Of a stretch of 64,000 bases of DNA, positions 7,056 through 34,716 are shown in pieces. The position numbers and the translations under genes were made by a program. Source of the DNA: Gemmatimonadota bacterium (GTDB taxonomy: Bacteria > Gemmatimonadota > Gemmatimonadetes > Palauibacterales > Palauibacteraceae); NCBI GenBank assembly GCA_965116475.1, contig OZ220691.1, forward strand, positions 1,120,001-1,184,000, given 5' to 3'. The notes under the pieces are model-generated. The model did not search any database. It saw only the letters and a list, made by a program, of their open reading frames with translations, and was not told where the DNA came from. Within the stretch, counting starts at the first letter, position 1; every line of letters starts with the position of its first letter.

Positions 7056-7289
7056 CGGTCTCCCCTTCCTCTCCCCTTCCCGCGGGAGGTCGTGTCCTCC
7101 CGCTCCGGAAACGTCGCCGCGCCCGTGCGTGTTCTCCCATGCGGACGCCGCCGTTGCGCGAGGCAGTCGCCGCCGTTGGCGAACCTTGCTGTCGGGGGGG
7201 CACCCGCGACAGTTTTTTCAAGCTTCGCCAACCCATGTACCACGAGAAGACCCACGAGAATGAGCGACATGTTTTTCCCTGGAGACAAG

Positions 7290-9352: not shown

Positions 9353-9596
9353 CCCCTCCGCTTTCGGGAATCGCCCGCGGGCCCGCCGCGGACCCTCCGT
9401 GCCTCGGCACTCTCGGCAGCTCGCGGGTTTCCGGGACACGACACTAGATGCCCGCATGCAGCCCGGAGGGGCAAGTTCGGCCCCCATCTGGTTCACCCTC
9501 GTGCGCCGCGTTAGCGTTCAGCGTTCAGCGCTCGGCGTTAGCGCTCCGCGCGTCGGTTCCGCTGTCGGCCCGCTTTCTTCTGCTTCCGGAGGACCG

Positions 9597-13954: not shown

Positions 13955-15074
13955 GGGTCAGCCAGGCGCTGAAGCGCTCGTTCAGCGCGTCCTGGTTGTC
14001 CACCCAGAACTCCCAGTCGTTGCGCAGGGCGCGTGCGACGTTCTCGGGGCTCGTGGGCAGGTGGGGCGCCATCTCGACGCCGGTCGCGAGATGGGTCGTG
14101 ACGAGCGGCTCCCCGGATCGGCGGGCCGGACCGTAGGAGATCCGGCGTGAGACCGCCGCCAGCGATTCCCCCGTCGTCGCGAAGGCGACGAAGCGAAGCG
14201 CGTGCTCCAGTCGCGGCGTCCCCGCCACGATGCTCAACTGGCCGTAATCGAGCACCTGGCCGTCCCACACGATGACGAACGGCTGCTCCTCCAGGATCTG
14301 GGCGTTGAAGATGCGGCCGTTGTAGGCCGTGCTCATCACGACTTCGCCGTCCGCCAGCATCTGCGGCGGCTGGGCGCCCGCCTCCCACCACACGACCTGG
14401 TCCTTGATCGTATCGAGCTTGTCGAAGGCGCGGTCGAGCCCTTCCGGCGTGGCGAGCGTGGCGTACACGTCGTCGAGCGGGACTCCGTCCGCGATGAGGG
14501 CAAATTCCAGGTTGACCTGCGGGACGCGGCGCATTCCGCGGCGCCCCGGGAACTTCTCGAGGTCGAAGAAGTCCGCCATCGTCGCGGGCTGCTCGTCCGG
14601 GAAGAGGTCGGCGTTGTACGCGTACACCGTGGAGTAGAAGAGCATCCCGGCCCCGCACTCCCCCTGCATCTCCGGATAGAAGTCCTCCCGCGCGGGCGTC
14701 CCGTCGGGCGCCGGCGGCAGCATGTCGATGTCGATCGGCTCCAGCAGGCCCTCGTCGCAGCCGCGCATCGCGTCCGCCATCTCCAGGTCCACGACATCCC
14801 AGTACACCGCGTCGACGTCGACCTGCGCGCGTATCTGGGCGAGGCCGCCGTTGTAGTCTTCCATGTCGACCCGAATCCCGGTCTCGTCCATGAACGGGAC
14901 CTGGATGGCTCCGCGATACGCCCGGCCGTAGGAGCCTCCCCAGGAAACGGCCGTGATCGCCGGATCTTCCGGCGCCTGGGGCCCGCAGCCGAGCGTGAAC
15001 GCGGCCGCGGCGGCGAGGACGACGAGCGTCGCGTCCCGTGATCCGCGGAGCGCCGATCTCTGCTTGGAATTCAT
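13944..15074 (-). CDS. Polyamine-type ABC transporter substrate-binding lipoprotein (paralog 1)
   Basis: Lipobox-like FTLGC; VSWGGSYG, DFFDLEKFPGRRG, WWEAGAQPPQMLADGEV; GGAGA RBS before ATG 15074. Confidence 0.88.
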   Translation of the reverse strand: MNSKQRSALRGSRDATLVVLAAAAAFTLGCGPQAPEDPAITAVSWGGSYGRAYRGAIQVPFMDETGIRVDMEDYNGGLAQIRAQVDVDAVYWDVVDLEMADAMRGCDEGLLEPIDIDMLPPAPDGTPAREDFYPEMQGECGAGMLFYSTVYAYNADLFPDEQPATMADFFDLEKFPGRRGMRRVPQVNLEFALIADGVPLDDVYATLATPEGLDRAFDKLDTIKDQVVWWEAGAQPPQMLADGEVVMSTAYNGRIFNAQILEEQPFVIVWDGQVLDYGQLSIVAGTPRLEHALRFVAFATTGESLAAVSRRISYGPARRSGEPLVTTHLATGVEMAPHLPTSPENVARALRNDWEFWVDNQDALNERFSAWLTRAN

Positions 15075-15097
15075 GCGTTTCTCCAAATCTGTCCGCG

Positions 15098-16240
15098 TCA
15101 TGCGCGGCTCCCCTCGTCCCCTTCGAAGTCCAGCGCGCGGCAGTCGTTGACGGTCCATCCGATGCGGACGGTGTCGCCCACCATCATGGCGCCGTGCCCC
15201 ACGATGTTCGGGATCTTGGCCACGACATCCCGGCCCCCGCAGGCGGCCAGCCGGACGCGCAGGTGGTCGCCGAGAAAGGTCATGTCCTCGATGGCGGCCT
15301 CGACGACGTTGTGATAGAGACCCTCCTCGGGCTTGATCGCGATCCGCTCGGGGCGGATAGAGAGCGTGACCGTTTCGCCGACCCCGCACGGGGCGATCCG
15401 GAAGGCCCGGATCCGCTCGCCCCCCACGTCCACTTCGCACAGGTCCCCCTCCACGAGCGTCACCCGGCCGTGGAGCCGGTTGTTCTCGCCGATGAAGCGG
15501 GCCACGAACGCGCGTTCGGGCTCCTCGTAGAGCCCCTCCGCTCCGGCAATCTGCTCGATCCGGCCGCCGTTGAGGACGGCGATCCGATCCGACATCACCA
15601 TCGCCTCCTGCTGGTCGTGGGTGACGTAGACGACGGTCACGCCCAGCCGCTGATGGATGGAGCGGATCTCGTACTGCATCTCCTCGCGCAGGCTGCGGTC
15701 CAGGGCGCCGAGCGGCTCGTCCATCAGCACGAGTTCGGGTTCGAACACGAGGGCCCGCGCGATGGCCACGCGCTGCTGCTGACCGCCGGAAAGCTGGCCC
15801 GGCCGCCGATCCTCGAGGCCGCCGAGGCGGACGAGGTCGAGCGCACGTTCGACGCGCTCGCGGCGCCGATCCTCCGCGATGCCGCGCACTTCCAGCGGAA
15901 ACGCGAGGTTCGCGCCCACCGTCATGTGCGGAAAGAGCGCGTAGTTCTGGAACACCATCCCGATCCCGCGCTTGCGGGGCGGAAGATCCTGGACGGAGCG
16001 CCCGCCGATGCGGATCGTGCCCGACGTTGCGGTCTGAAAGCCCGCGAGCATCATCAGGATGGTCGTTTTCCCCGAACCGGAAGGACCGAGCAGGGTCACG
16101 AATTCGCCCCTGCCGATGCCGAGGTTCAGGTCGTCCACCACCAGCGTGCGGCCGTCGTAACTCTTGCTCACGCCCTCGAACTCCACGTGCGCGGTCGGGC
16201 TGTGACGGCCACTCTCCGCGCCGTTGCGACCCGCGATCAT
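15098..16240 (-). CDS. potA: Polyamine-type ABC transporter ATP-binding protein (PotA-like)
   Basis: Walker A GPSGSGKT, VFQNYALFPHMTV, LSGGQQQRVA, LMDEPLGALD, VTHDQ, C-terminal TOBE. Confidence 0.92.
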   Translation of the reverse strand: MIAGRNGAESGRHSPTAHVEFEGVSKSYDGRTLVVDDLNLGIGRGEFVTLLGPSGSGKTTILMMLAGFQTATSGTIRIGGRSVQDLPPRKRGIGMVFQNYALFPHMTVGANLAFPLEVRGIAEDRRRERVERALDLVRLGGLEDRRPGQLSGGQQQRVAIARALVFEPELVLMDEPLGALDRSLREEMQYEIRSIHQRLGVTVVYVTHDQQEAMVMSDRIAVLNGGRIEQIAGAEGLYEEPERAFVARFIGENNRLHGRVTLVEGDLCEVDVGGERIRAFRIAPCGVGETVTLSIRPERIAIKPEEGLYHNVVEAAIEDMTFLGDHLRVRLAACGGRDVVAKIPNIVGHGAMMVGDTVRIGWTVNDCRALDFEGDEGSRA

Positions 16241-16370
16241 CTGGCGATCCTGCCTTGTTTTTCGGAATATGGGATGGTGGTCAGCCCCGATCGGGACCGA
16301 CCAACTTGAAGCCGGCGGCGCCAATCCGCGAGTGCGCGTCGCCCTGGCCGTTTGGAGTGGAGGAGGAACG

Positions 16371-17414
16371 ATGAAGATCAGGAACCGGAGGGCGGGAGGG
16401 GTCACGTGGGCCGCCTGCCTGCTCGTCCCCGTCGCCGCGTTCGCCCTGGCGACCGCGGGAGAACCGGACGCGAAGCTGGATTCGGTCTCCGCCGCGCAGG
16501 CCTTCATCTCCCTGCTCGACGAGGCGGGACGCGAGAAGGCGCTCTTCTCCCTGGAGGACGAGGAGCGCTTCAACTGGCACTTCGTCCCGAGGGCCCGGAA
16601 CGGACTGCCGCTCGCCGACATGACGAGCGAGCAGCGCGGCGCCGCGCACGATCTCCTTCAGGCCGCCATGAGCAGCCAGGGCTTTCTGAAGGCCAGCGCG
16701 ATCATCGAACTGGAGCGCATCCTGGGACTCCTGGAGGGGCGGCCCGAGCGCCGGGATCCGGAGAACTACTATGTCGCGATCTTCGGCGACCCGTCCGCGG
16801 ACGGGCCGTGGGCGTGGCGGTTCGAGGGGCATCACCTCTCCCTCAACTTCTCATCGCCTTCCGATCTGCTCACGGTGACGGGGCCCGCGTTCATGGGCGC
16901 GAACCCGGCCCGCGTGCCGTCGGGCCCGAAGGCGGGCTGGCGGCCGCTGGGGCGGGAGGAAGACCTGGCCCGCGCGCTGATGCGGAGCTTCACGCCGGAG
17001 CAGCGCGAGCGGGCGACCATCGCGACCGAGGCTCCCAGCGACATCCTCACCGGGAACGACCGCGAGGCCCGGCTCGACGCGTTCGAGGGTCTGCCCGCCG
17101 ACGCCATGACGGCGGAGCAGCGCGCGGTCCTGTTCGAGATCGTGCACGAGTACGCGGGGAACGCGACGACGGGCGCCGACTGGATGGCGCGGGTGGAGAA
17201 CGAGATTCCGGCGAGCGACATCCACTTCGCCTGGGCGGGTCCGCTCGACCCCGGCGCGGGACACTACTACCGGGTCCACGCGCCGACCTTCCTCATCGAG
17301 TACGACAACACGCAGAACGACGCGAACCACGTGCACTCGGTGTGGCGGGATCTGGAGAACGACTTCGGGGGCGACGCGCTGGCGCGCCACTACGAGGAGT
17401 CCGACCACCACTGA
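16371..17414 (+). CDS. DUF3500 domain-containing secreted protein
   Basis: RFNWHFVP, WRFEGHHLSLN, YYRVHAP.FLIEYDNTQNDANHVHSVWRDLENDFG; GGAGGA RBS; signal peptide. Confidence 0.85.
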   Translation: MKIRNRRAGGVTWAACLLVPVAAFALATAGEPDAKLDSVSAAQAFISLLDEAGREKALFSLEDEERFNWHFVPRARNGLPLADMTSEQRGAAHDLLQAAMSSQGFLKASAIIELERILGLLEGRPERRDPENYYVAIFGDPSADGPWAWRFEGHHLSLNFSSPSDLLTVTGPAFMGANPARVPSGPKAGWRPLGREEDLARALMRSFTPEQRERATIATEAPSDILTGNDREARLDAFEGLPADAMTAEQRAVLFEIVHEYAGNATTGADWMARVENEIPASDIHFAWAGPLDPGAGHYYRVHAPTFLIEYDNTQNDANHVHSVWRDLENDFGGDALARHYEESDHH

Positions 17415-17416
17415 CG

Positions 17417-17448
17417 CCGCGCGGCCCGGCGAACCCGGTCCCGCGCGG
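17417..17448. terminator. Possible bidirectional hairpin between convergent genes
   Basis: CCGCGCGG...CCGCGCGG self-complementary arms around an imperfect CCGG/CCGG core, in the 40-bp spacer between convergent stops. Confidence 0.3.
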
Positions 17449-17454
17449 ACAGGT

Positions 17455-19899
17455 TTACCGCCCGATGAGCCTCAGGAAGCGGGGGTCCCGGCGCACGCGC
17501 TCGAAGTCGTCGGCGCCCGGCAGCGTCTGCCGTCGACCCGGATTGAGTTCGACCGCCCGCTCAAGGGCGTTGAAGGCGTCGTCTTCGCGCCCGTCGTCGA
17601 GCAGGAGCGCGGCCAGCGTCACCCACGCGTTGTCGTTCTCCGGCGACCTGTCCGCAGCGTCGCGCGCCAGCGCCAGGGCGCCCTGCAGGTCGCCGTCCCG
17701 CCGCAGCCGCGAGGCTTCGCGCAGCATCTGGCCCGAACGGTACATGTTGAGGACCCGGCGCAGTTCGGCGAGCGGTGCGTCGTGGTCGTCGACCCGGATG
17801 TCGACGACGCGGTCGCTGTAGCCGCCGTTGACGCGCGGCGCCACGACGAGGATGGCGCCGGACTGCATGCCGCGCGCGTCGCCGCCGGCCGCCTGAGCGG
17901 CGTCGAGCGCGTCCATGAGCCGTTCCGCGAGCGGTCCCGTGGAGGCTTCGAACGAGGCCGCCATCGCGTCGACGACCTCGGGCCCGGTGAGGATGTTCCC
18001 CTGCGCGCAGTAGTCCACGCCGCACCTGTGGCCCTTCCAGTCGCTCGCGCCGGTGCCGGTCCAGGCAGCCGTCCGTCCCTGCTGGTCGAGGATCGCAACC
18101 TGGCGCCGATCCCGGCCCTCGTCGCTTCCCACCATCATCTCGAGCGCCTCCTCGGGCGAGTAGCCGGCCTGCAGGAGCTCGATGCCGATCGCCCCGTACA
18201 TGGGGTTCGCGGCGGCCTGGTGGGCGATGATCACGAGTCCGCCCTTCGCGTGCATGGCGCGGTTTCCGGCCCCGAACGCCTTCGACTGCACACCCATCCC
18301 CAGCTCGCCGGTCGCGGGGTCGCGCCCGATGATCGAGTACGTCCCGAGGTAGTTCGGGTCGTAGTTCGGGTCGACGAGGTCCGCCGCGCCCGATGTCGGA
18401 ACCATGCGCGGCTCGGGGACCGCTTCGGGCGAAGCCCAGGCACCGCCCAGCGCCCGATGGACGGCCAGCCTCGCCAGGGCCAGGTCTCGCGTCGCGCCCG
18501 CCAGCGCCGCCTCGACGTTCAGGAGCGTGCGCAGGGCGTCGAGATAATCGGTGTAGCCCACGACCCCCGACTCGTATCGCTGCGACTGCAGCTCCATCGT
18601 CGCCTGCGCCTCCTCGCGCTGGGAGGCGAGGAACGCGTGCCGTCGCGTCTCGTTCTCCAGGCCGGCGAGTGCGGTTTCGACTTCGTTCACCGCCGTCACC
18701 ACGGTCCGTCCGTACGCCGCGGCGGCTTCATCGAAAAGGCCCTCGGCCAACGCGAGATTGTTCCGGAGCCTACCGGCCTGGAAGATGGGCGCGGTCAGGT
18801 TCGTGATCAGGTTCGTGAACCACTGCTGTGCGTTGAAGAGTTCGCCGGCATCGGAGCTTGCGAGCCCGATGGAACCGGAGAGCGAGAGCGACGGAAGCAG
18901 CTGGGCCCGGCGTGCGCCGATACTGTAGCGGGCCGCGTCGAGCCGCTGGCCCGCCGCCCTCACGTCTGGCCGCTGGTACAGGAGATCCGCCGGAATCCCG
19001 GCGGGGACCGGGTCCGCCGCCAGTTGCGGCGCGAGAGAGTCGGGCAGGATCTCCTCGACGTCGTCCCGATAGCCGCCCAGCAGAACGGCCAGGCGGGCCT
19101 CGGCGCCCGTGAGCTGCGTTTCGAGCTGCGGCAGCCCCGCCTGCGTGTTCCTGAGATCCTGGCGAACCTGGGACAGCGTCCAGGAGTCGATCAGCCCGCG
19201 ATCGTAGCTCGTTGACGCCAGCGACTCGCGTTCGAGCAGCACCTCCACCGTCTCGCGGGCCAGTCCGCTCTGCCGCCGCAGGCTGACGATGTCGAAGTAC
19301 GTGGTGATGGTCTCGGCCAGGATGCCGATCCGCGCCGCATGGAAATCCGATTCCGAAGCCAGGTAGTGTGACCCCGCCGCCCGCGCGTCGTTGCGGGCGC
19401 GTCCCCAGAAGTCCAGCTCCCAGGCGAAATCCGCACTGACCGAATACGTCGTCAGCTCGATTCTTTCCGGAAACGCGAAACCCGCGACCGTATCTCCCGG
19501 ACTGCCGAGCCCGAGAGCCTGTATCTGCGCCCCGATGCCGGCGTCCGTCGGCTGGTCGACGTCGTTGACGGCGCCGCTCGCCCCGACGCTCGGGAAGAGG
19601 TCGGCCCGCGCCATGCGCGCCCTCGCGCGAGCCTGACGGACGCGCGCGACGCCCGCGGCGAGGTCGAAGTTGGAGGCGAGCACGGAATCGACCACGGCGT
19701 CGAGCACCGGATCCCGGAACGTCGTCCACCACTGCAACGGCTCATATGTCCCCGGCGGCAACAGGGCCGTGAAGTCCTCCGGCATCTCCGCCACCGGCTC
19801 CGGCAGGGACGGCCCCGGGGCCAGCGAACAGGCGGAGAGCAGCAGGAGCGGGGCGAGCCGCAGCAGTCTCGTCACACGCGGTGCTTCCGTGCGCGCCAT
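17455..19899 (-). CDS. Fusion protein: NodT/TolC-type outer-membrane efflux lipoprotein + DUF1028 (Ntn-hydrolase-like) + TPR
   Basis: Lipobox LLSAC, WWTTFRDPVL, WELDFWGR, PADLLYQRPDVRAA, LAVHRALGGAW (OEP); then TYSIIGRDPATGELG.GVQSK, AQGNILTGPEVV, AGGDARGMQS, DIRVDDHDAPLAELRR (DUF1028); C-terminal TPR-like helices; one uninterrupted 814-aa ORF. Confidence 0.85.
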   Translation of the reverse strand: MARTEAPRVTRLLRLAPLLLLSACSLAPGPSLPEPVAEMPEDFTALLPPGTYEPLQWWTTFRDPVLDAVVDSVLASNFDLAAGVARVRQARARARMARADLFPSVGASGAVNDVDQPTDAGIGAQIQALGLGSPGDTVAGFAFPERIELTTYSVSADFAWELDFWGRARNDARAAGSHYLASESDFHAARIGILAETITTYFDIVSLRRQSGLARETVEVLLERESLASTSYDRGLIDSWTLSQVRQDLRNTQAGLPQLETQLTGAEARLAVLLGGYRDDVEEILPDSLAPQLAADPVPAGIPADLLYQRPDVRAAGQRLDAARYSIGARRAQLLPSLSLSGSIGLASSDAGELFNAQQWFTNLITNLTAPIFQAGRLRNNLALAEGLFDEAAAAYGRTVVTAVNEVETALAGLENETRRHAFLASQREEAQATMELQSQRYESGVVGYTDYLDALRTLLNVEAALAGATRDLALARLAVHRALGGAWASPEAVPEPRMVPTSGAADLVDPNYDPNYLGTYSIIGRDPATGELGMGVQSKAFGAGNRAMHAKGGLVIIAHQAAANPMYGAIGIELLQAGYSPEEALEMMVGSDEGRDRRQVAILDQQGRTAAWTGTGASDWKGHRCGVDYCAQGNILTGPEVVDAMAASFEASTGPLAERLMDALDAAQAAGGDARGMQSGAILVVAPRVNGGYSDRVVDIRVDDHDAPLAELRRVLNMYRSGQMLREASRLRRDGDLQGALALARDAADRSPENDNAWVTLAALLLDDGREDDAFNALERAVELNPGRRQTLPGADDFERVRRDPRFLRLIGR

Positions 19900-19906
19900 C
19901 GCCTGC

Positions 19907-20623
19907 TCAGGGCGCGATGCTGAAGCCGAACACCAGGTGCGCCCGGTCCTGGTCGGGATTCAGGATGTACGCGACGCTCACCGGCACGGCGAAGGTCTCC
20001 GTGATCGCGAGGTCCTTGCTCGCCGTGACCCCCAGGTTGACCACGGCCGCCTCGTCGGTGCCGTAGAAGTCGCTCTCGCCGCCCACGAAACCCAGGTGCA
20101 GCCCGACACCCACTCCCGACACCTCGAAGGGCACGCCGACCTCCCCGTACAGCACGCTGCTCTCGGTGAGCATGCCTCCGAAAAGGGAGATCGGGAAGGT
20201 CTCCGGACCCGAGAAGGCGAGCGACATCTCCACCGTGTGCGATGCGCCGGCCCCGAAGCCCGTGCGGGCGTCGGGCGAGGGGAAGTAGTAGTCCGTGATC
20301 CCGACCGCGACGGAGAGGCCCGACTCGGCCGTCACCGTGTAGGTCGCCCAGAGATCGTTCTCGTTGGCGGAGGCGCCCGAGGCGGAGATGGAGTACGAAC
20401 CCCACGCACCGAACTCGAGCCCTCCGGCACCAAAGGTGATCGCCGGCTGCACGGCCATGGACTCGCCGAAGTCGACGCCGCGCCATACGTAGCGGCTGAC
20501 GACGTCGGCTCCGATGGAGGCCGACTGGCCCCACACGGGGGCGGCGAAGGCGAAGAGGGCCACGACGGCAACAGCGAGCCGGAGGCCCCGGAACCGGAAC
20601 GAATCAACGCGGATCACGGACAC
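19907..20623 (-). CDS. Putative outer-membrane beta-barrel/porin (TorF-like)
   Basis: Signal peptide; GADVVSRYVWRG..QP, GAWGS, ENDL, ITDYYF; alternating beta pattern, ends HLVFGFSIAP; GAGGAG RBS before GTG. Confidence 0.65.
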   Translation of the reverse strand: MSVIRVDSFRFRGLRLAVAVVALFAFAAPVWGQSASIGADVVSRYVWRGVDFGESMAVQPAITFGAGGLEFGAWGSYSISASGASANENDLWATYTVTAESGLSVAVGITDYYFPSPDARTGFGAGASHTVEMSLAFSGPETFPISLFGGMLTESSVLYGEVGVPFEVSGVGVGLHLGFVGGESDFYGTDEAAVVNLGVTASKDLAITETFAVPVSVAYILNPDQDRAHLVFGFSIAP

Positions 20624-21486
20624 GATTCTTCTCCTCTCTCGATAGTGACCCGGGAGCGAAGCATGGACTCCGCCGAACCCCGGAAGACGCCGCGAGTGGG
20701 CGGAACATCCGCATAATCGCGGCCCACCGCGACCCGCACATGGCGCACATCGCATTGTGTATCGTTGGTCGGATCGAAGCCGACCCAGCCCATGCCGGGA
20801 AACCAGCTCTCGACCCAGGCATGGCTTTCGCCCCTCGTCACGCCACCGCCGTTCCCACCATCCGGACCCAGATAACCGGACACGTAACGGGTCGGGATCC
20901 CCCAACCCCGCAGGATCGAAGCCATGACATGCGCGTAGTCCTGGCACACACCCTCGCGGCTCTCCAGGATGCGCTCGATCGGCGAATCCACGGCGGTCGT
21001 ACCTGGAATATAATCAAACGACTCGTGGAGCCGGCTCCGCAGGGCCGTGGCGGTCGCCAGCGGGTCGTCCCCGCGCTCGATGCCGCAGCTCGTGATGAAG
21101 TCGGCGAGGAGTGGCGAGGAGCGGACGAAACGGCTGGGCTGCAGCATCAGCCCGAGTTCGGGAGCGCTCGCCGCCGCGCCGAGCCGGGCCCATGCCTCTT
21201 CCCCGACCTCGACGGGCGTCTCCGGCATGGGACCCACCTCCACGGTCGAACGTCCGACGATCGAGAGACGGCGATGCGTCCCGGGGCGATCGAAGAAGTG
21301 GCCCCGATTGTGAAACGGCCCCTCGAACTCGAACACCGGGCCGGCCGGGTCGGTCTCGATCGCGAAACGGCGCACCACCTGTCTTCGATCCTGCACGGGG
21401 TGCAGATAGAGCGTCATGACCGACGCCCGAACCGGCGCGCTGTACACGAACTCGACCGCGTGTTCGATCGTGTAGCGCACGATCAT
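20614..21486 (-). CDS. Transglutaminase-like protein (Bact_transglu_N + Transglut_core)
   Basis: YTIEH...Y..PV, catalytic GVCQDYAH, RYVSGY, SHAWVE, GFDPTN, VAVGRDYADVPP.RG. Confidence 0.92.
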   Translation of the reverse strand: MIVRYTIEHAVEFVYSAPVRASVMTLYLHPVQDRRQVVRRFAIETDPAGPVFEFEGPFHNRGHFFDRPGTHRRLSIVGRSTVEVGPMPETPVEVGEEAWARLGAAASAPELGLMLQPSRFVRSSPLLADFITSCGIERGDDPLATATALRSRLHESFDYIPGTTAVDSPIERILESREGVCQDYAHVMASILRGWGIPTRYVSGYLGPDGGNGGGVTRGESHAWVESWFPGMGWVGFDPTNDTQCDVRHVRVAVGRDYADVPPTRGVFRGSAESMLRSRVTIERGEESCP

Positions 21487-22466
21487 GACGGGAGTCCCGC
21501 GGTCACCGGGTAGTCGACGTACGTGGCCTGCACCAGGTCGTGCAGGGTCCGGCTGTCGCGCGTCAGAGCACCGAAGGCCTTCCCGGGCCCGGCGTCGGGT
21601 ACGGGTTCCGCCTCGCCCGGGTCGAGTTCGAGGGCCGCGGCGATCCGGAGCGCCAGGCGGTGCGGCGCGGCGAGCGGCGGCCGTCCGCCGGCCGGGTCGA
21701 TGCCCCGCAGCGTGGATTCGATGCGGCCGGTGGCGTAGTGCAGCGAACGGGAAACCTGCGGGTTCCGCATCAGAAAGCCGAGCACGGAGCTGCGCCGCAG
21801 CGCGAGAGACCGGTCCCGGCGGTAGGGTTCGAAGGCGCCGCACACGCGCAGCAGATCGGCCCAGGAGAGGGCCAGGCCGTCGCCTTCCGGCCGGGCGATC
21901 CGATCCCATACTTCGAGCAGCACGATCTGCTGCTGCAGCCGTTCCACGTAGCGGCCGAGTTCGAGGAAGCGCCACGCATCGTCCCTGGCCATGCTGGCGT
22001 CCACGACCCCGGCGAGGAGGCGCAGCCGGTCGATCGCCTGGCTCACGAGAGCCGCCGGTCCTTCGCCCCATACTTCAGCGAACTCCGTCTCCTGGAGCCA
22101 GAGGAACCCCTGGTTCAGACACACCCACACCCGCAGGGGCAGCCGGGGCCGGATCTCCCTGGCGTTTTCCCGCGCCATCCCCCAGCACGAAATCATCGAC
22201 GCCGGGTTCGTCGTGTCTTCGACGAGGCCGCCGGTCAACGTGTAGGCATCCGCGATGAGGAAGGCTTCGGCCTCGTCCACATCGGCCGGCGCCTGGGGCG
22301 GGGACTGACTCAGCGCCCGGTAGACGACGCGCCACCCGAGGGCGAGTTCATCGGCGTCCGTATCCACGAGACGGGTCAGCTGATACTCGAGCAGGCGGGC
22401 CGTGTTTTCGGTCCGTTCCGCGTAGCGGCCGAGCCAGTAGAAGTTCGCCGCCATCCGGGCTAGCAT
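21483..22466 (-). CDS. Alpha-E domain protein
   Basis: MLARMAANFYWLGRYAERTENTARLL, ARENAREIR, WRFLELGRYVER. Confidence 0.9.
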   Translation of the reverse strand: MLARMAANFYWLGRYAERTENTARLLEYQLTRLVDTDADELALGWRVVYRALSQSPPQAPADVDEAEAFLIADAYTLTGGLVEDTTNPASMISCWGMARENAREIRPRLPLRVWVCLNQGFLWLQETEFAEVWGEGPAALVSQAIDRLRLLAGVVDASMARDDAWRFLELGRYVERLQQQIVLLEVWDRIARPEGDGLALSWADLLRVCGAFEPYRRDRSLALRRSSVLGFLMRNPQVSRSLHYATGRIESTLRGIDPAGGRPPLAAPHRLALRIAAALELDPGEAEPVPDAGPGKAFGALTRDSRTLHDLVQATYVDYPVTAGLPS

Positions 22467-22490
22467 CGTCCGTCGCCTCTCACCCGTCCG

Positions 22491-23990
22491 CTACTCACGG
22501 AGGATCCAGAGATCCTTGCAGCCTCCGCCCTGGCTGGAGTTCACGACCAGGCTTCCCTTCCTCAGCGCAACGCGGCACAGCCCCCCGGGAACGACATGCT
22601 GCGTTTCGCTCCCCTGGAGAACGAAGGGGCGCAGGTCCACGTGGCGAGGCTCCAGCCGTCCGTCCACGAAACAGCCGGCCCGTGAGAGGGGCAGCACGGG
22701 CTGCGAGATGTAGTTGGCCGGGTCGCTCCGCAGGTGCTCCGCGAACGCTTTCCGCTCGGCTTTCGTCGCATGCGGACCCACAAGCATCCCGTAGCCGCCG
22801 CTCCCGCCGACTTCCTTGACGACGAGTTCCTCCAGGTTGTCCAGCGTGTAGGCGAGGCCGTCCGGCTCCCGGCAGAGATGGGTCTCGACGTTGGCCAGAA
22901 TCGGCTCCTCATCCAGAAAATAGCGGATGATGCGGGGGACGTACGCGTACAGCGCCTTGTCGTCCGCCACGCCCGTGCCCGGCGCGTTGGCGAGCACCAG
23001 GTTGCCGGCGCGGTAGGCGTGGAAGAGGCCGGCGGCCCCCAGGACGGAGTCGTCCCGGAACGCGATCGGATCCAGAAAATCGTCATCGATCCGCCGATAG
23101 AGCACGTCGATCCGCCGCAGACCCGCGGCCGTGCGGGCGTACAGCGTCGCGTCGTGCACGACGAGATCCCGCCCCTCCACCAGATCCACGCCCATCTCGC
23201 CGGCCAGGAACGCGTGCTCGTAGTAGGCGGAGTTGTAGCGGCCCGGCGTCAGCACGGCCATGCGGGGCGTCTCCGCGGTCCGCGAGAGCGACGCGAGCGT
23301 CGAGTAGAGGCGCTCCGGGTAGTCCGCCACCTCGCGGACCCCGTACGCCCGATACAGGTAGGGGAAAGCCCACTTCATCGCCGTGCGGCAGGCGAGCATG
23401 TAGGAAACGCCCGACGGGACGCGGAGATTGTCCTCCAGCACCGCGAAGGTGTCGCCGGCGCGCACGATGTCCGTCCCGCACACGGCGACGTAGACATCGT
23501 GCGGCACCTTCATCTCCCGCATCTCGAGGCGGTACTGCGGACAGCTGAGCACGAGGTCGACCGGGACGATGCCGTCCCGCAGCGACTTCCCGTCGTGGTA
23601 GACATCGTGCAGGAACAGGTTGAGGGCGGCGAGGCGCTGCTTCAGCCCCCGCTCGATGTGATCCCACTCCTCGGCGGTGATGAGGCGCGGCACGCAGTCG
23701 ATGGGGATGATCTGCTCCGAGACATCTTCGACGCCGAGGACCGTGAACGTGATCCCCTCATGGACGAAACGCCGGTACACCCCGTCCTGGAGCCGCTCCA
23801 GATCTTCGGGGGGGATCTTCGAGAGGGCGGCGCCGAGCCGGCGCGCCCGCGCCCTGGGCGTACCGTCCTCGTGGAACAACTCGTCGTGAAACGCGGCATC
23901 CAGCTCGTAGTGCCGGAAAGGCCCGGACCCCGCCGAGATCGCGGGGTCCGGGTCGGCATAGCCGTGATCGACGAACGTCACCGCCGACAT
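22491..23990 (-). CDS. Circularly permuted type 2 ATP-grasp protein
   Basis: GITF, VLEDNLRVPSGVSY, LTPGRYNSAYYEH.FLA, DVLYRRIDDDFLDP, NAPGTGVADDK, GSGGYGM, PRHVDLRPF, LVVNSSQGGG.KD. Confidence 0.93.
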   Translation of the reverse strand: MSAVTFVDHGYADPDPAISAGSGPFRHYELDAAFHDELFHEDGTPRARARRLGAALSKIPPEDLERLQDGVYRRFVHEGITFTVLGVEDVSEQIIPIDCVPRLITAEEWDHIERGLKQRLAALNLFLHDVYHDGKSLRDGIVPVDLVLSCPQYRLEMREMKVPHDVYVAVCGTDIVRAGDTFAVLEDNLRVPSGVSYMLACRTAMKWAFPYLYRAYGVREVADYPERLYSTLASLSRTAETPRMAVLTPGRYNSAYYEHAFLAGEMGVDLVEGRDLVVHDATLYARTAAGLRRIDVLYRRIDDDFLDPIAFRDDSVLGAAGLFHAYRAGNLVLANAPGTGVADDKALYAYVPRIIRYFLDEEPILANVETHLCREPDGLAYTLDNLEELVVKEVGGSGGYGMLVGPHATKAERKAFAEHLRSDPANYISQPVLPLSRAGCFVDGRLEPRHVDLRPFVLQGSETQHVVPGGLCRVALRKGSLVVNSSQGGGCKDLWILRE

Positions 23991-23994
23991 TGAA

Positions 23995-24014
23995 CGCTAC
24001 CCGTCGCTACCCGT
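23995..24014. repeat. 10-bp direct tandem repeat (CGCTACCCGT x2) in the amt / ATP-grasp spacer
   Basis: Read directly from the sequence. Confidence 0.7.
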
Positions 24015-24024
24015 GGGCGGACGC

Positions 24025-25434
24025 TCAGTCCGCGTCGCGGTAGTCGTTGTCGTCGTCCGGATCCACCATGAGGACGAATTCGGGATAGGCATCGATCCCG
24101 AGTTCCGCCGCGTCCTGGCCGATGCTCTCGACGCTCCGCGACACGCGAACGCCCATCGTCCTGTCCAGCACCGTCCAGAAGATCCAGGAAACGGAGAAGA
24201 CGAACGCGCCCACGGCCGCGACGCCGGTCAACTGCACCCAGACATCGCCGCCGGCCGCGATGGCGGTGGCGAGCGTGCCCCAGATTCCGGCGAACAGGTG
24301 TGCGGGCACGGCGCCGACCACGTCGTCGATCCGCCGCACCTCGAGCAGCTTCAGCCCGAACATGCACAGGAGCGAGCCGACGGCGCCGATCAGGATCGCC
24401 CACAGCGAGTTGGTGATGTTCGGTCCCGCGGTGATCGCCACCATGCCGGAGATCGCCCCGTTGAGTGTGGCGAAGAGGTCGACCCGGCCGAGTATGGACC
24501 GGGACAGGCAGAGCGCCGTGATGACGCCGGCCGCGGCGGCGAGGTTCGTGTTCACGAGGATGTTGCTCATGGAGACCGCGTTGACAACGCCCGAGAGGGC
24601 GAGTTCGGAGCCCCCGTTGAAGCCGAACCAGCCCATCCAGAGGATGAACACCCCCAGCGTGACGGCGGGGATGTTCGAGGGCGGGGTCAGCTTGATGGAG
24701 CCGTCCTTGCGGTACTTGCCCCAGCGCGGACCCACGACGAGTGCGCCGGCCAGCGCCGCCCAGCCGCCGGTCGAGTGCACGATCGTGGAGCCGGCGAAGT
24801 CCGTGAAGCCCATCTGTCCGAGCCAGCCGCCACCCCACGTCCACGCGCCGACGATGGGGTAGATGACCGCGGTGAGCCCGCCCACGAAGACGAAGAAGGT
24901 CCAGAGCTTGACCCGCTCGGCCAGCGCGCCGGAGACGATCGAGGCAGTCGTGGCGACGAAGACCATCTGGAAGAACCAGTCCGACATCACGGAGTAGCCG
25001 TTCTCCGCGACGGCGGCGGCCGCGCCTTCGTCCCCGCCGATGAGCGCGACCTCGTCGGCGGACGGGCCGTAGAGGAAGCTGATCGACCCGATCAGGCTCC
25101 CGACGTCCACGTACATGAGGTTGTAGCCGATGACGTAGTACATGAGACCCGCAATCGAGTACAGTCCGATGTTCTTCATGCAGATCATGGACGCGCTCTT
25201 GGACCGCACGGACCCGGCTTCGAGCATCGTGAAACCCGCGCACATCCACATCACGAGCACGCCCCAGACGAGGAACGAATACGTGTTGAGGACGAACCCG
25301 AGATCTCCGACAACGTCCTGCGCGGCGACGACGGCCGGCGCCAGGAGGAGGCCCGCGCCGGAGAGCAGCGCGGCGGTTGCGAGATTCCTTCCCGCCGCGA
25401 ACCGGCGGGACCAGCGTACCTGATGGGTGCTCAC
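24025..25434 (-). CDS. amtB: Ammonium transporter (Amt family)
   Basis: GFTMLEAG, FFQMVFVAT..SIVSGALAER, DFAGSTIVH, GWFGFNGGS, IDDVVGAVPAH (twin His kept); GTG start after GAAGGAG. Confidence 0.93.
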   Translation of the reverse strand: MSTHQVRWSRRFAAGRNLATAALLSGAGLLLAPAVVAAQDVVGDLGFVLNTYSFLVWGVLVMWMCAGFTMLEAGSVRSKSASMICMKNIGLYSIAGLMYYVIGYNLMYVDVGSLIGSISFLYGPSADEVALIGGDEGAAAAVAENGYSVMSDWFFQMVFVATTASIVSGALAERVKLWTFFVFVGGLTAVIYPIVGAWTWGGGWLGQMGFTDFAGSTIVHSTGGWAALAGALVVGPRWGKYRKDGSIKLTPPSNIPAVTLGVFILWMGWFGFNGGSELALSGVVNAVSMSNILVNTNLAAAAGVITALCLSRSILGRVDLFATLNGAISGMVAITAGPNITNSLWAILIGAVGSLLCMFGLKLLEVRRIDDVVGAVPAHLFAGIWGTLATAIAAGGDVWVQLTGVAAVGAFVFSVSWIFWTVLDRTMGVRVSRSVESIGQDAAELGIDAYPEFVLMVDPDDDNDYRDAD

Positions 25435-25620
25435 GGCGGCTCCTTCTTCAACAGGTTCTGTCGGCTTGATCGTGCCCCTCCGCGACTCTCGATCTAGGTT
25501 GCGTCCCTGCTCGGCATCGCGCAACGGGTTCCCGGAGGGCCGGTAGCCGAACGGCGGCAGCCGCTTATCTTCGGGAGTGACCGGACTGCACCGGAATCTT
25601 CGACGAGAGGGCATATCATC

Positions 25621-26679
25621 ATGTGGAAACGCTCCATCGGAGTGGTCGCCGCATTCGGGTTGGGGCTGGCGCTCCCTGCCGCACACCCCCTCCTTGCCCA
25701 GGAAATCCGGGCTCGTGGCGGCTCCACCGTCACCGTGGGCGCCCGGATCCAGGCACAATACGAGGCTTCGAGCGTCGACGAGACGCCTTCGTCCTTCTTC
25801 ATCCGGCGCGCCTGGGTGACCATCGACGGGAGGCTCAACGATCTCGTCGCCGCCAGGGCGCAGTTCAACATCGACGGCGCATCGGTTCTCGAAGCGTACC
25901 TCGAACTCACACCCAGCGAGGCGCTGGAGATCCAGTTGGGGCAGTTCAAGAAGGGGATGTCGTACTTCTGGCTGGTGCCCAACGCCTGGCTCCCGATCAT
26001 CGAACGAGACGCCAGGGTCACGGGAGTGGATCACTGCCCCGGGGTCGGGAGCGTCTGCACCTTCGGCCGTCTCACCGGCGCGCTGGGCCTGGACAACTAC
26101 GAGCCCGGCATCCTCGCGCAGGGGCGCCCCAGCGACCACTTCGGCTACCGCTTCACGCTCACCAACGGCGAGGGGATCGGGAACAAGGACGTGAACACCG
26201 GGAAGTCGGCCTCGGGCCAGCTCTCGCTCTTCCCCACCGGAGGAAACACGCGCGTGTCCGCCTACTTCGCCCTGGACGAGACGCTCAACAGCCGGGACGA
26301 GACGATGGGAGTCCCCGCGATCGGGGCCGAGGTGGAATTCGGCACCTGGCTCGGCGGTCCCCACCTGATCGCCAACGTCCTGCAGGGCCGCAACTGGAAG
26401 CTGAACGATGACGCGAAGTTCTCCGCCTTCCAGTTCATGGCCTTCTGGTACGTTCCCACGGCCCCGGAGTCCGGGTTCTCGGGGATCGAGCCGATGCTGC
26501 GGGTAAGCTGGGTCGACTCCGGCGCGGAGCATCCGGAAAAGGTCACCGGGACGGTGGTCACGCCGGGCGTCATGGTGTACTTCGCGGGTCGAAACGGGAT
26601 CTCCACGAACGTGGACTTCTACAGCTCGGGCGGCCGGTCGGACTGGTCCTGGAAGGTGCAGGCGTTCGCGTTCTTCTGA
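25621..26679 (+). CDS. Porin (OprO/OprP-like), divergent from amt
   Basis: Signal peptide, RIQAQY, FFIRRAW, EAYLE...IQLGQFK, NGEG, C-terminal QAFAFF. Confidence 0.7.
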   Translation: MWKRSIGVVAAFGLGLALPAAHPLLAQEIRARGGSTVTVGARIQAQYEASSVDETPSSFFIRRAWVTIDGRLNDLVAARAQFNIDGASVLEAYLELTPSEALEIQLGQFKKGMSYFWLVPNAWLPIIERDARVTGVDHCPGVGSVCTFGRLTGALGLDNYEPGILAQGRPSDHFGYRFTLTNGEGIGNKDVNTGKSASGQLSLFPTGGNTRVSAYFALDETLNSRDETMGVPAIGAEVEFGTWLGGPHLIANVLQGRNWKLNDDAKFSAFQFMAFWYVPTAPESGFSGIEPMLRVSWVDSGAEHPEKVTGTVVTPGVMVYFAGRNGISTNVDFYSSGGRSDWSWKVQAFAFF

Positions 26680-26715
26680 TCGGGCCCGGACGGGCCGCGA
26701 CGAATCAACGCATCA

Positions 26716-26747
26716 GGGGGGCGCGCTGGCGATCCGGCGCGCCCCCC
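26716..26747. terminator. GC-rich hairpin between convergent porin and STAS genes
   Basis: GGGGGGCGCGCTGG-CGAT-CCGGCGCGCCCCCC, followed shortly by T-rich bases. Confidence 0.65.
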
Positions 26748-26767
26748 GATCCGTTTCCCGGCCTTTT

Positions 26768-27103
26768 CTAGCTGAAGCTCGCCTGAGCTTCTTCGACCGT
26801 ATCGAAGACCTTCGTCAGCCGCACGAAACCGCTGACCTCCAGCACTTCGAGGATATTCTCCGGGACCTGGCACAGGGCGAGCCCGCCGCCGGCCTGGTTG
26901 GTCTTGCGGATGGCGATCAGCAGCGCCCGCAACCCGGCACTGCTGATGTAGCGCAGGCTCCCGCAATCCAGGACCAGGTTGGTCGCTCCGCCATCGATGA
27001 TGCCGGAGAGCTCCCCGTCGAAGTCCTTGGCGTTGCTGGAGTCTACGCGCCCGCTGACCACCCCTACGGCGGTATCTCCCGAATAGCTGGTCTCAATGTT
27101 CAT
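26768..27103 (-). CDS. STAS-domain anti-sigma factor antagonist (RsbV/SpoIIAA-like)
   Basis: SGRVDS, LVLDCGSLRYISSAGLRALL (phosphoacceptor Ser), EVLEVSGF. Confidence 0.9.
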   Translation of the reverse strand: MNIETSYSGDTAVGVVSGRVDSSNAKDFDGELSGIIDGGATNLVLDCGSLRYISSAGLRALLIAIRKTNQAGGGLALCQVPENILEVLEVSGFVRLTKVFDTVEEAQASFS

Positions 27104-27536
27104 CTGGCGATTCCTCGCTTCCGGCAGCCCCCAGCGGCTGCCTTAGGGTAAGGCAGTTGAAACCCTCGACCCGCTCGTACGCAAGCGTATCAATAAAAGA
27201 CTTCGTAAGGTGGATGCCAAGCCCCCCGATGGGACGATCCTCTGCTGCAAGGCTTACGTCGGGAATCTCCGCGTCCTCAAGTGGGTTGAAGGCTCGGCCG
27301 TTGTCTCGAATCGTGATCTCAATGTCGGCGTCTCCGAGGCGAATGTCCACCGTGATGACCGGATCCTCCGTAATTCCCTCGAATCCGTAGGAGATGACGT
27401 TCGTCAGAAGTTCATCCAGCGAGAGCTGAAACCGGAAGATGATGTCCTGGGAAATCGCGCGCTCGACGCAGAAGCGTTCGACCTCGTCCACCACGCGACG
27501 TGGCTCGCTCGGGTCCGGTTTGACGGCGATCCGCAC
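27093..27536 (-). CDS. Anti-sigma factor Ser/Thr kinase (RsbW-like, HATPase_c_2); start uncertain
   Basis: LSLDELLTNVISYG, IRDNGRAFNPL, RPIGGLGIHL. Confidence 0.85.
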   Translation of the reverse strand: MRIAVKPDPSEPRRVVDEVERFCVERAISQDIIFRFQLSLDELLTNVISYGFEGITEDPVITVDIRLGDADIEITIRDNGRAFNPLEDAEIPDVSLAAEDRPIGGLGIHLTKSFIDTLAYERVEGFNCLTLRQPLGAAGSEESPDEH

Positions 27537-27769
27537 TCCCGCTCCGCTCCTGTTGGCTGGCTGTCTGCTCGCTGTCCCGGGCGCCCCCGGCGCCGTAACC
27601 ACGCACGCGCCCGAGGTTCGACATATTGCGCGGCCGGTCCCCGGTTGTGGAGATTCCCGCACCGTGGCGGGGACCCCCGCGCGAAATCGACAGAGACGAT
27701 GACGACTGGACGCGGTTTCGGACAAGGGCAGGGACCGATGACCGACGATTCACCTCAACCGAGGCCTCG

Positions 27770-28927
27770 ATGCCGAAGATCCTGGTAGTAGACGACGAAC
27801 CCGATCTGGAACTGCTGCTCCGGCAGAAGTTCCGGCGCCGGATCCGCTCGGGCGAATTCACGCTGGTCTTCGCCCAGAACGGGGTCGAAGCCCTCGCGGA
27901 ACTCGACGAACACGATGACGTCGACGTCGTGCTCTCCGACATCAACATGCCCGAGATGGACGGCCTCACCCTCCTGGCGCAGCTCGGCGAGCTCGACCAC
28001 GATCTCCGCGCCGTGATGGTGACGGCCTACGGCGACATGAAGAACATCCGCACCGCCATGAACCGCGGCGCCTTCGACTTCGTCACCAAGCCGATCGACT
28101 TCGGCGATCTCGAAACGACGATCGCCAAGACCCTGGAACACCTCGCCGTGATGCGGGCCGCGCTGCGCGACCGGGACGCGCTGGTGGCGCTGCGCCAGGA
28201 ACTCGGCGTGGCGGCGAGGATGCAGGAGTCGATCCTGCCGACGAACTACCCCAACGACCCGCGCTACGAGCTTCACGCGTGGATGACGCCGGCCCGCGAA
28301 GTCGGAGGGGATTTCTACGATTTCTTCCGCCTCGAGGAAGACCACATGGCGATCGTCATGGCCGATGTCTCGGGCAAGGGCGTGCCGGCGGCCTTCTTCA
28401 TGATGGTGAGCCGGACGCTGCTCAAGGGGACGGCGATCGGCGAGGCGGACCCCTCGATCTGTCTCGATGAGGTGAACCGGCTTCTCATCAACGAGAACGA
28501 GGAGTCCATGTTCGTGACCCTCTTCTACACCAAGTTCAATCCCGTGAACGGCCAGGCCACGTTCGCGAACGCGGGGCACAACCTTCCGTTCCTCATCAAG
28601 GCGTCGGGAGAGGTCGAGCAGATCGTCTCGGATCCGGGGCTCGTCCTCGGGATCATGTCGGGGGTGGACTTCCCCAAGGGGTCGATCACGCTCGAGCCGG
28701 GCGATGCCGTGTTCTTCTACACGGACGGCGTGACGGAGGCGATGAACGAGGAGGGCGTCGAACTCGGCGAAAAGGAGCTGGCCGAGGTGCTGGGCGAATG
28801 CCACGGCGCGTCCGCGGAAGACATCAACCGTCACGTGATCCGCGCGGTGCAGGAACATGCGGGAGAGGCGGACCAGTCGGACGACATCACGTGCCTGACG
28901 CTGCGGTACCTGGGGGCGCCGGCCTGA
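27770..28927 (+). CDS. Response regulator receiver + PP2C/SpoIIE phosphatase (RsbU/RsbP-like)
   Basis: KILVVDDE, LSDINMP, TKP; EVGGDFYD, ADVSGKG, NAGHN, YTDGVTEA, QSDDIT. Confidence 0.92.
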   Translation: MPKILVVDDEPDLELLLRQKFRRRIRSGEFTLVFAQNGVEALAELDEHDDVDVVLSDINMPEMDGLTLLAQLGELDHDLRAVMVTAYGDMKNIRTAMNRGAFDFVTKPIDFGDLETTIAKTLEHLAVMRAALRDRDALVALRQELGVAARMQESILPTNYPNDPRYELHAWMTPAREVGGDFYDFFRLEEDHMAIVMADVSGKGVPAAFFMMVSRTLLKGTAIGEADPSICLDEVNRLLINENEESMFVTLFYTKFNPVNGQATFANAGHNLPFLIKASGEVEQIVSDPGLVLGIMSGVDFPKGSITLEPGDAVFFYTDGVTEAMNEEGVELGEKELAEVLGECHGASAEDINRHVIRAVQEHAGEADQSDDITCLTLRYLGAPA

Positions 28928-32330: not shown

Positions 32331-32343
32331 GGGTTCGCCGCAT

Positions 32344-32384
32344 GGATCATGATGGATCATGGAGGGATCACGGAGGGATCATGA
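32344..32384. repeat. Imperfect tandem repeat of GGATCA(T/C)G units just upstream of the amidohydrolase start
   Basis: ggatcatgat-ggatcatggag-ggatcacggag-ggatcatga. Confidence 0.6.
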
Positions 32385-34677: not shown

Positions 34678-34716
34678 CGGCTCATTTGGCGATTCACGGA
34701 GGCAGGAGGTAGGAAG

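Follow-up and report, generated by a model that had tools for sequence, protein, structure and literature searches.

A nitrogen-linked amt–ATP-grasp–barrel unit and an efflux channel–DUF1028 fusion, a likely self-cleaving precursor, in one gene row of a Gemmatimonadota genome

Passages of PMC5666114 and PMC6376114, citing Valas and Bourne (2008) and Iyer et al. (2009), describe an 'Anbu operon' made up of genes for a circularly permuted (CP) ATP-grasp enzyme, an Alpha-E protein, a protein resembling transglutaminases, and Anbu, and report that in Pseudomonas putida its genes show induction when nitrogen is limiting. Here we analyze a row of six genes at 17455-25434 of a 64,000-nucleotide stretch of contig OZ220691.1 (the window) from a marine Gemmatimonadota bacterium. 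All six lie on the minus strand in one direction; the first three families of the Anbu operon stand between a gene for an ammonium transporter (amt), the first of the row, and one for a small outer-membrane beta-barrel, and the last gene encodes an outer-membrane factor (OMF), a DUF1028 hydrolase domain and tetratricopeptide repeats (TPR) in a single protein (OMF-DUF1028-TPR). The trio of CP-ATP-grasp, Alpha-E and transglutaminase is widespread, and we know of no identification of its product since it was first described; nor do we know of a function for the DUF1028 family. It is established for the N-terminal nucleophile (Ntn) hydrolase superfamily that its members cut off their own pro-segment, and that the nucleophile must have a free alpha-amino group. 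Proteasome beta subunits, penicillin acylase and glycosylasparaginase are such self-processing precursors, and in penicillin acylase and like enzymes both chains stay together after cleavage. We argue that the row is a composite of two layers, a probable nitrogen-limitation module and a tail whose fused gene is likely to encode a self-cleaving precursor, and not one six-gene machine. The nitrogen-linked unit of amt, trio and barrel is real, the OMF-DUF1028 tail is a recent add-on, and the row is a new variant of known systems rather than a new system.

The locus was compared with those of 36 species-level genomes of the genus, the window's own genome included, and with 80 wider loci found around ATP-grasp relatives by scanning bacteria at one genome per species. 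Within the genus, amt, CP-ATP-grasp, Alpha-E, transglutaminase and barrel genes form a conserved unit which is present or absent as a block. The CP-ATP-grasp gene was found in 24 of the 36 genomes, an orthologous amt adjoins the trio in the same 24, and the barrel follows the trio in every one of them, occurring also in G024. Ten of the 12 trio-less genomes (G001, G004, G005, G009, G015, G018, G023, G046, G047 and G049, among which G046 is just 65% complete) gave no match to the window's Amt at 1e-20, no search at family level having been made. Outside the genus, nine Gemmatimonadota/Longimicrobiales loci with an ATP-grasp 73-78% identical to that of the window have amt upstream of the trio and the barrel downstream of it, and searches of their fetched flanks at E 1e-6 brought up neither OMF nor DUF1028 in any of them (one, L057, ends 171 nt past the barrel). 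In a Binatia locus (L062), a 72%-identical amt lies 2 kb beyond the transglutaminase gene. An earlier interpretation of the window, made from its letters alone (hereafter the sequence-only reading), had linked the trio to amt and a small barrel, and co-occurrence in 24 genus genomes and nine distant Gemmatimonadota loci upholds that linkage. The OprO/P-like porin gene likewise adjoins amt, both in the loci of the genus and in the outgroup loci L055-57 and L085.

Several irregular copies of the module were also encountered. An open frame of 999 aa in G021 was considered as an Amt::ATP-grasp fusion and rejected, because amt there runs in a different frame and ends at its own stop codon. A second, partial module end is found elsewhere on the G014 chromosome (L048, G014:C3:1787000-1803000, 7253-8404), where short Alpha-E and transglutaminase fragments precede a full barrel gene that is 87% identical. 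In G042 (L043 4073-7885) the amt match falls into two pieces (residues 1-109 and 163-457) and Alpha-E into two overlapping pieces; the module may have decayed further here, or the assembly, which has 100 contigs, may be in error. A gene for a MobA-like nucleotidyltransferase follows the barrel in two loci of Longimicrobiales (L053 12122-12928; L063 12138-12851), in the position that the OMF fusion occupies in the window.

Orthologs of the DUF1028-TPR portion of the last gene, 72-79% identical, were found in eight genus genomes that contain neither trio, amt nor barrel. In all eight, DUF1028-TPR sits between orthologs of the flanks of the window's locus and in the same relative orientation: on the left, genes for a class IV aminotransferase (Aminotran_4) and beta-lactamase-family proteins (window 8483-10814), and on the right, an amidohydrolase gene and the following open reading frame (ORF; orf 34678; window about 31922-36570). 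Roughly 21 kb separate these flanks in the window, and hold an ABC transporter, the DUF3500 gene, the six-gene row, the OprO/P-like porin and a partner-switching set; in the eight trio-less genomes the interval holds hardly anything but the hydrolase gene. The sister family's DUF1028-TPR homologs (36-40% identical) stand beside genes for HtrA-like and M28 peptidases, a beta-lactamase-family gene and an amidohydrolase. Judged by these neighborhoods, DUF1028-TPR appears to have been at this site before the presence or absence of the module varied in the genus, and not to have joined it together with the trio. Across relatives, the joint linkage that the sequence-only reading proposed for the row accordingly holds in one part and fails in the other: the barrel and amt are tied to the trio, and the OMF and DUF1028 vary independently of it.

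What follows the barrel differs markedly among the trio-bearing genomes of the genus. In G021 there is nothing, and in G019 a stand-alone DUF1028-TPR with its own signal peptide. In G007, G010, G013 and G051 the barrel is followed by an OMF gene, a stop codon, a short spacer and a signal-peptide-bearing DUF1028-TPR, and in G050 by an OMF and then an adaptor (membrane fusion protein, MFP) of the resistance-nodulation-division (RND) type, fused in frame to DUF1028-TPR. In G042 the OMF lipoprotein signal and the OMF C-terminal tail are joined to DUF1028-TPR, the OMF body (about residues 36-497) being deleted in frame; and 16 genomes encode the full OMF-DUF1028-TPR fusion. The possibility that the fusion is an assembly artefact was ruled out, since the same single reading frame spans residues 1-814 in these 16 of the 36 genomes. 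Aligned at DNA level with the unfused arrangement, fused genomes are short of about 100-125 bp at the junction, a deletion which took the OMF stop, the spacer, and the start codon and signal peptide of the hydrolase. A tree built from the coding sequence of OMF and DUF1028-TPR places unfused G007 as the sister (support 0.935) of all 12 fused sequences examined, with the other unfused genomes outside this group; one fusion event is therefore enough. From alignment and tree alike, the fusion clearly appears to have arisen once, by one deletion.

The DUF3500 gene accompanies OMF-bearing loci, and is absent from the G019 and G021 loci. We conclude that a NodT-type OMF, together with DUF3500, was inserted later between the barrel and DUF1028-TPR, and that in one lineage the deletion then joined the OMF and hydrolase genes in frame. 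The two layers can also be seen to come apart by decay. In G010, G013 and G051 the ATP-grasp gene is fragmented, and Alpha-E and/or transglutaminase genes have suffered large deletions, with boundaries that are different in each genome, while amt, barrel, OMF and DUF1028-TPR are still full-length. A peculiarity of the window's own copy is that DPNY stands twice in tandem before the LG-Thr junction of the linker (18343-18414), and once in the 11 other fused orthologs.

The hydrolase domain itself offers a route by which a fused gene might still yield two ordinary proteins. Thr520, the putative nucleophile, lines up with a Thr at position 4 in chain 2imh_A, the sole solved DUF1028 structure, and is nearly invariant in an alignment of 28 sequences. 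In an AlphaFold model of residues 480-814 (pLDDT 85), Thr520 is the first residue of the first beta-strand, and the 38 residues ahead of it are disordered, the linker having a pLDDT <50. Foldseek matched this model to 2imh with a TM score of 0.79-0.81 and an rmsd of 1.9 A, followed by proteasome beta subunits and HslV. A signal peptide and then a short pro-segment, which ends in a conserved motif right before the Thr (DPNYL-G/A in the genus, RPLRP-x-H in the sister family), were found in 14/14 stand-alone relatives examined. As these stand-alone forms keep the pro-segment after their signal peptide, the ancestral enzyme would already need a second cut after that of signal peptidase; and if this is an Ntn self-cut at the pro-segment, then a longer N-terminal extension should be tolerated. 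A full-text literature search on 'DUF1028' returned nothing related to the family.

Considered in this light, DUF1028-TPR would be a Sec-exported periplasmic Ntn hydrolase. The fused protein would be exported on the OMF lipoprotein signal, and the hydrolase then freed by Ntn-type autoproteolysis at Gly519|Thr520, the same cut that the stand-alone enzymes would make to shed their short pro-segment, such that one gene would give rise to an efflux channel and a periplasmic hydrolase, both of them ordinary. Within the genus the DUF1028 gene is fused to three exported partners, namely the OMF, the MFP adaptor (G050) and a signal-peptide-bearing short-chain dehydrogenase/reductase (SDR; G001 and G005). 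Similarly, a set of 77 long metagenome proteins with DUF1028 shows the domain behind varied signal-peptide-bearing partners, with the Thr motif at the junction, and 13 of the 77 include OEP. We consider the chances about even that the DUF1028 pro-segment and Thr constitute a portable self-cleaving junction, by which an exported hydrolase loses its signal peptide and rides on an upstream exported protein. Across 12 fused orthologs (66 pairwise comparisons, dS about 0.27-0.30), dN/dS is 0.128 in the OMF body, 0.29 in the linker, 0.036 in DUF1028 and 0.30 in the TPR domain; the OMF and DUF1028 halves are both under purifying selection.

Among the metagenome proteins, the partners encountered (P0045-P0076) include SDR, beta-lactamase-family, GH20 hexosaminidase, GT2, D-amino-acid oxidase, prolyl oligopeptidase and BNR proteins. 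Some linkers (P0061, P0069) hold a signal-peptide-like remnant, and a few of these proteins may be run-through gene calls. For P0001-P0025 (660-692 aa; P0007 635 aa), which are relatives about 75% identical, the alignment consensus suggests tandem DUF1028-TPR units in these or others, in which case a second pro-segment and Thr motif would fall mid-protein.

With regard to the front module, a link to nitrogen is probable in our judgement, and any specific chemistry of the trio is rated far below it. The adjacency of amt is a line of evidence for this link which is independent of the Pseudomonas expression data. We infer that the module is expressed under nitrogen limitation, and that it combines ammonium entry with ATP-dependent amide ligation and hydrolysis in the cytoplasm. 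The barrel or barrels and Amt would bring ammonium over both membranes, and the cytoplasmic trio would run ATP-driven amide-bond ligation and hydrolysis on some substrate. A literature search found no paper containing both 'circularly permuted ATP-grasp' and 'ammonium transporter', and the terms 'ammoni', 'nitrogen' and 'transglutaminase' do not occur in the main text of a paper on the Palauibacterales (PMC10469786). At least 16 of the 80 wider loci, including ones from Binatia, Acidobacteriota and Dehalococcoidia, have homologs of the window's STAS protein, response-regulator/PP2C phosphatase and/or kinase next to the trio. An RsbW-like HATPase_c_2 gene was seen directly after the trio or Alpha-E in six loci; loci with partner-switching homologs by the trio include L064-L067, L069, L070, L096 and L109, of which L064, L065 and L069 are without a transglutaminase match.

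Scans for regulatory signals were largely negative. No promoter-like site was found in 17000-26000, and the three terminator-like sites in this interval, against 3.2 expected by chance, are all intragenic. Rfam gave no match at E 0.1 in 16000-30000, and so no glutamine riboswitch or other known leader there; a sigma-54 consensus had no match in the window. In a sponge metatranscriptome (run X1), 0.30 of the sampled words were present, and its assembled contigs, at >=90% likeness, give depth in 30/30 bins of 14000-30000; these contigs (383-806 nt among those listed) are mostly from relatives, and may include DNA. One of them crosses the ATP-grasp/Alpha-E junction, an assembled contig across two genes not being proof of one transcript.

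The sequence-only reading had treated all six genes as one envelope system, in which the trio makes or tags a nitrogen-rich peptide, DUF1028 replaces Anbu, and, under ammonium control, the OMF and barrel serve to export the product or to scavenge it. Much in the layout invites this interpretation: the six genes run in one direction, two neighboring pairs overlapping and the others separated by 7-34 bp; the fold of DUF1028 resembles that of the proteasome; DUF1028-TPR adjoins the module in 23 of the 24 trio-bearing genus genomes; and Anbu is indeed lacking, an absence first noted for the window which now extends to the whole 3.62-Mb genome, where the sole proteasome-family (PF00227) match is HslV, beside HslU, and tblastn with three Anbu-like ORFs (from L120, L126 and L129) gave a best E of 0.24. 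However, the Anbu-less state is common, given that a proteasome-family ORF lies downstream of the trio in at least 3 of 51 wider loci scanned, all alphaproteobacterial (a lower bound, as downstream ORFs were picked crudely by third-position GC content or length); as Anbu is usually absent near the closest trio relatives, no substitute is needed. DUF1028-TPR occupies the same site in eight trio-less genomes, the module does without OMF or DUF1028 in G021 and in nine outgroup loci, and in three genomes the trio decays and the tail persists. The trio enzymes belong to cytoplasmic families and are without signal peptides, DUF1028-TPR is ancestrally exported, and the partners would thus work in different compartments; nor does the row hold an inner-membrane pump or adaptor. 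We therefore consider a single six-gene system very unlikely. The predicted role of DUF1028 as a stand-in for Anbu, with the OMF exporting the product, is weakened by the genomes in which tail and module occur apart, and the union of trio and OMF-DUF1028 by the fragmentary trio beside an intact tail in G010, G013 and G051 and by the origin of the fusion in one deletion. On these comparisons of gene content DUF1028 is no stand-in for Anbu, and a make-and-export system is without support.

Two further readings concern the fused protein. It might remain uncleaved, with DUF1028-TPR tethered at the periplasmic end of the OMF trimer, where it might trim peptides or cell-wall fragments, or dock partners via its TPR. 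The topology fits, as the OMF C-terminus is periplasmic in TolC and OprM structures, and the fusion is kept in 16 species-level genomes, both of its halves being under purifying selection in the 12 that were examined; between the two cases would lie a protein that is cleaved and whose chains stay associated. Yet an uncleaved domain would be inactive, and DUF1028 has the lowest dN/dS in the gene; G042 drops the OMF body in frame and keeps export signal and hydrolase; the fusion of the hydrolase to an adaptor and a dehydrogenase in other genomes suggests that the partner is interchangeable; and the linker is disordered and faster-evolving. Permanent tethering thus seems unlikely to us. The notion of a neutral or slightly harmful accident, in which one half of the fused protein has lost its function and is kept as a passenger, can point to the origin of the fusion in a single small deletion and to the descendant G042, which has already lost the OMF body, but is hard to credit given purifying selection on both halves, an OMF half that still matches the full NodT model (293 bits), and persistence of the fusion in 16 of 36 species-level genomes.

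The preferred reading, a composite row with a self-cleaving tail, has its own points of weakness. All of the genomes compared are metagenome-assembled, and the relatives are kin. DUF1028-TPR does adjoin the module in 23 of the 24 trio-bearing genomes; the 7-bp gap before the fused gene makes co-transcription likely, and co-regulation with the nitrogen module is possible. The trio-decayed G010, G013 and G051 form one clade in the tree and hence record at most a few decay events; their assemblies comprise 1 to 8 contigs and some frameshifts may partly be assembly errors, although the large trio deletions are unlikely to be, because their boundaries differ in each genome. The proteasome-like Ntn fold makes a functional analogy between DUF1028 and Anbu conceivable. 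Finally, self-cleavage at Gly519|Thr520 is likely from the conserved junction, and not something that a structure model can show.

The features of the locus are collected in the table below.

Table. Genes and protein segments of the row and its neighbors, with positions in the window.
Feature	Position	Strand	Basis or remark
amt, ammonium transporter (marine subtype), first in the row	24025-25434	-	PF00909; GTG start, AAGGAG just 5'
CP-ATP-grasp, circularly permuted amide ligase, COG2308-type	22491-23990	-	CP_ATPgrasp_2
Alpha-E protein	21483-22466	-	PF04168
Transglutaminase-like cysteine enzyme	20614-21486	-	Bact_transglu_N + Transglut_core
Small 12-stranded outer-membrane beta-barrel, signal peptide, TorF/KdgM-like channel, 238 residues	19907-20623	-	Predicted structure
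OMF-DUF1028-TPR, 814 residues	17455-19899	-	Pfam + NCBIfam
OMF half, residues 1-495, NodT-type efflux outer-membrane lipoprotein, lipobox	18415-19899	-	TIGR01845
Linker, residues 496-519: OMF C-terminal tail and conserved pro-segment ending DPNYLG	18343-18414	-	DNA alignment
DUF1028 Ntn-hydrolase domain, residues 520-713, putative nucleophile Thr520	17761-18342	-	PF06267
C-terminal TPR domain, residues 714-814, and stop codon	17455-17760	-	TPR_19, TPR_2; model helical repeats
OprO/P-like porin, divergent from amt	25621-26679	+	Porin_O_P 2.1e-04
STAS protein of partner-switching set	26768-27103	-	
Response-regulator/PP2C phosphatase of partner-switching set	27626-28927	+	
HAMP histidine kinase of partner-switching set	about 29880-32330	+	
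DUF3500 gene, convergent with the row	16224-17414	+	PF12006 6.8e-89

The spacings between the six genes are, in order, 34, 24, -4, -10 and 7 bp; the Alpha-E and transglutaminase genes overlap by 4 nt (ATGA), and the transglutaminase and barrel genes by 10 nt, or by 4 nt with an alternative start at 20617. Gene order, gaps and both overlaps are as had been read from the sequence, and searches against Pfam and NCBIfam agree with every domain named there. Amt matches Ammonium_transp at 6.7e-94 over profile positions 3-399 of 399, and falls just under the cut-off of the NCBIfam model marine_trans_1 (TIGR03644; 513.2 bits against 514). Both of its His-containing pore motifs align with the solved Amt chain 8qj3_A, and the two aligned histidines we take to be the 'twin His' of Amt. 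The ATP-grasp enzyme matches the whole CP_ATPgrasp_2 profile (1-374; 9.3e-154, 512 bits) as well as CP_ATPgrasp_1 (451 bits), and is followed after 24 bp by Alpha-E (1.3e-60, 206 bits, profile 1-293 of 294). The transglutaminase exceeds the Pfam cut-offs of both its domains; Cys, His and Asp motifs are legible in its translation, and presumably hold the catalytic residues. The motifs of both proteins that had been called intact are thus present. In the sixth protein, Pfam finds OEP in two stretches (154 bits), DUF1028 at 520-713 (9.1e-65, full-length profile) and TPR at 726-812, and NCBIfam finds a NodT-type OMF at residues 16-486 (293 bits against a cut-off of 210) and a TPR end-of-group domain; a lipobox is legible at the N-terminus. 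The genome, a single contig, has two OMFs and a single copy each of Amt, trio and DUF1028 (tblastn and family search).

The fifth protein has no family match in Pfam, and its match to the TorF/gcw_chp model TIGR02001 (1e-05, 25.3 bits) covers residues 21-129 only and lies below the cut-off of 47.15. An AlphaFold2 model (pLDDT 82) predicts a 12-stranded barrel, closest to KdgM (4fqe/4pr7; TM score 0.73-0.74, sequence identity 11-12%), in keeping with the description of this gene as porin-like in the sequence-only reading.

As for the OMF half, no adaptor or inner-membrane pump gene adjoins the fusion in the window. The second OMF of the genome, a paralog about 44% identical, belongs to a classical OMF-MFP-RND operon elsewhere. 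A further MFP-RND (AcrB-type) pair, at G000:C1:1849547-1853927 (locus L131 4548-8928; G000 being the window's genome), has no adjoining OMF, and its MFP shares 61.5% identity with the adaptor encoded after the orthologous OMF in G050. This lone pair is a plausible conventional partner for the fused OMF. It is flanked by genes for a leishmanolysin-like protein and a GPP34-P450 fusion.

The association of the trio with the only Amt of the genome, a dedicated outer-membrane pore and partner-switching sensors points to ammonium limitation as a concrete condition under which its substrate might be sought. The series of unfused, fused and body-deleted genes is a clean case of a small deletion creating a two-function gene, and more generally, tight co-directional spacing should not be taken as proof of a single pathway. 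If cleavage is true, then a self-excising Ntn junction joins the few bacterial routes to two proteins from one frame, and the DUF1028 family gains a testable activation mechanism. Should the junction prove portable, there would be three such fusions at the same gene in the genus (channel, pump adaptor and dehydrogenase) and many more in metagenomes, including those with beta-lactamase-family, hexosaminidase, amino-acid oxidase and prolyl-oligopeptidase partners and the tandem DUF1028-TPR proteins; in that case the gene in the window would encode a genuine bacterial polyprotein, giving an efflux channel and an unrelated soluble enzyme per translation product.

Set against known systems, the front of the row most resembles the Anbu operon, with the same three families in the same order, translational coupling of Alpha-E and transglutaminase in the window, and a tie to nitrogen, which in the passages of the published accounts is induction under nitrogen limitation and in the window is adjacency to the genome's only Amt. 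It differs in that the genome is without Anbu, and in having Amt upstream, a 12-stranded barrel downstream, and a partner-switching set beside the row. Like the small channels KdgM/NanC and TorF, the barrel is predicted to be 12-stranded and monomeric, with about 215 mature residues; unlike them, it scores under the TorF cut-off, is 11-12% identical to KdgM and belongs to no Pfam family. The N-terminal 495 residues of the last protein match the whole model of NodT/OprM-type OMFs (TIGR01845) and carry a lipobox, whereas the 320-residue C-terminal hydrolase-TPR extension and the lack of an adjacent adaptor or pump set it apart. With 2IMH (SPO2555 of Silicibacter pomeroyi) the hydrolase shares a full-length PF06267 match, the fold and the aligned N-terminal Thr, which is near the N-terminus in 2IMH, and in the window's protein comes after 519 residues with the OMF and is followed by TPR. 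Lastly, as in self-processing Ntn precursors, the family has a conserved Gly/Ala-Thr junction right before the first core strand and a pro-segment to shed, but in the window the 'pro-region' would be a complete and independently functional protein of another family.

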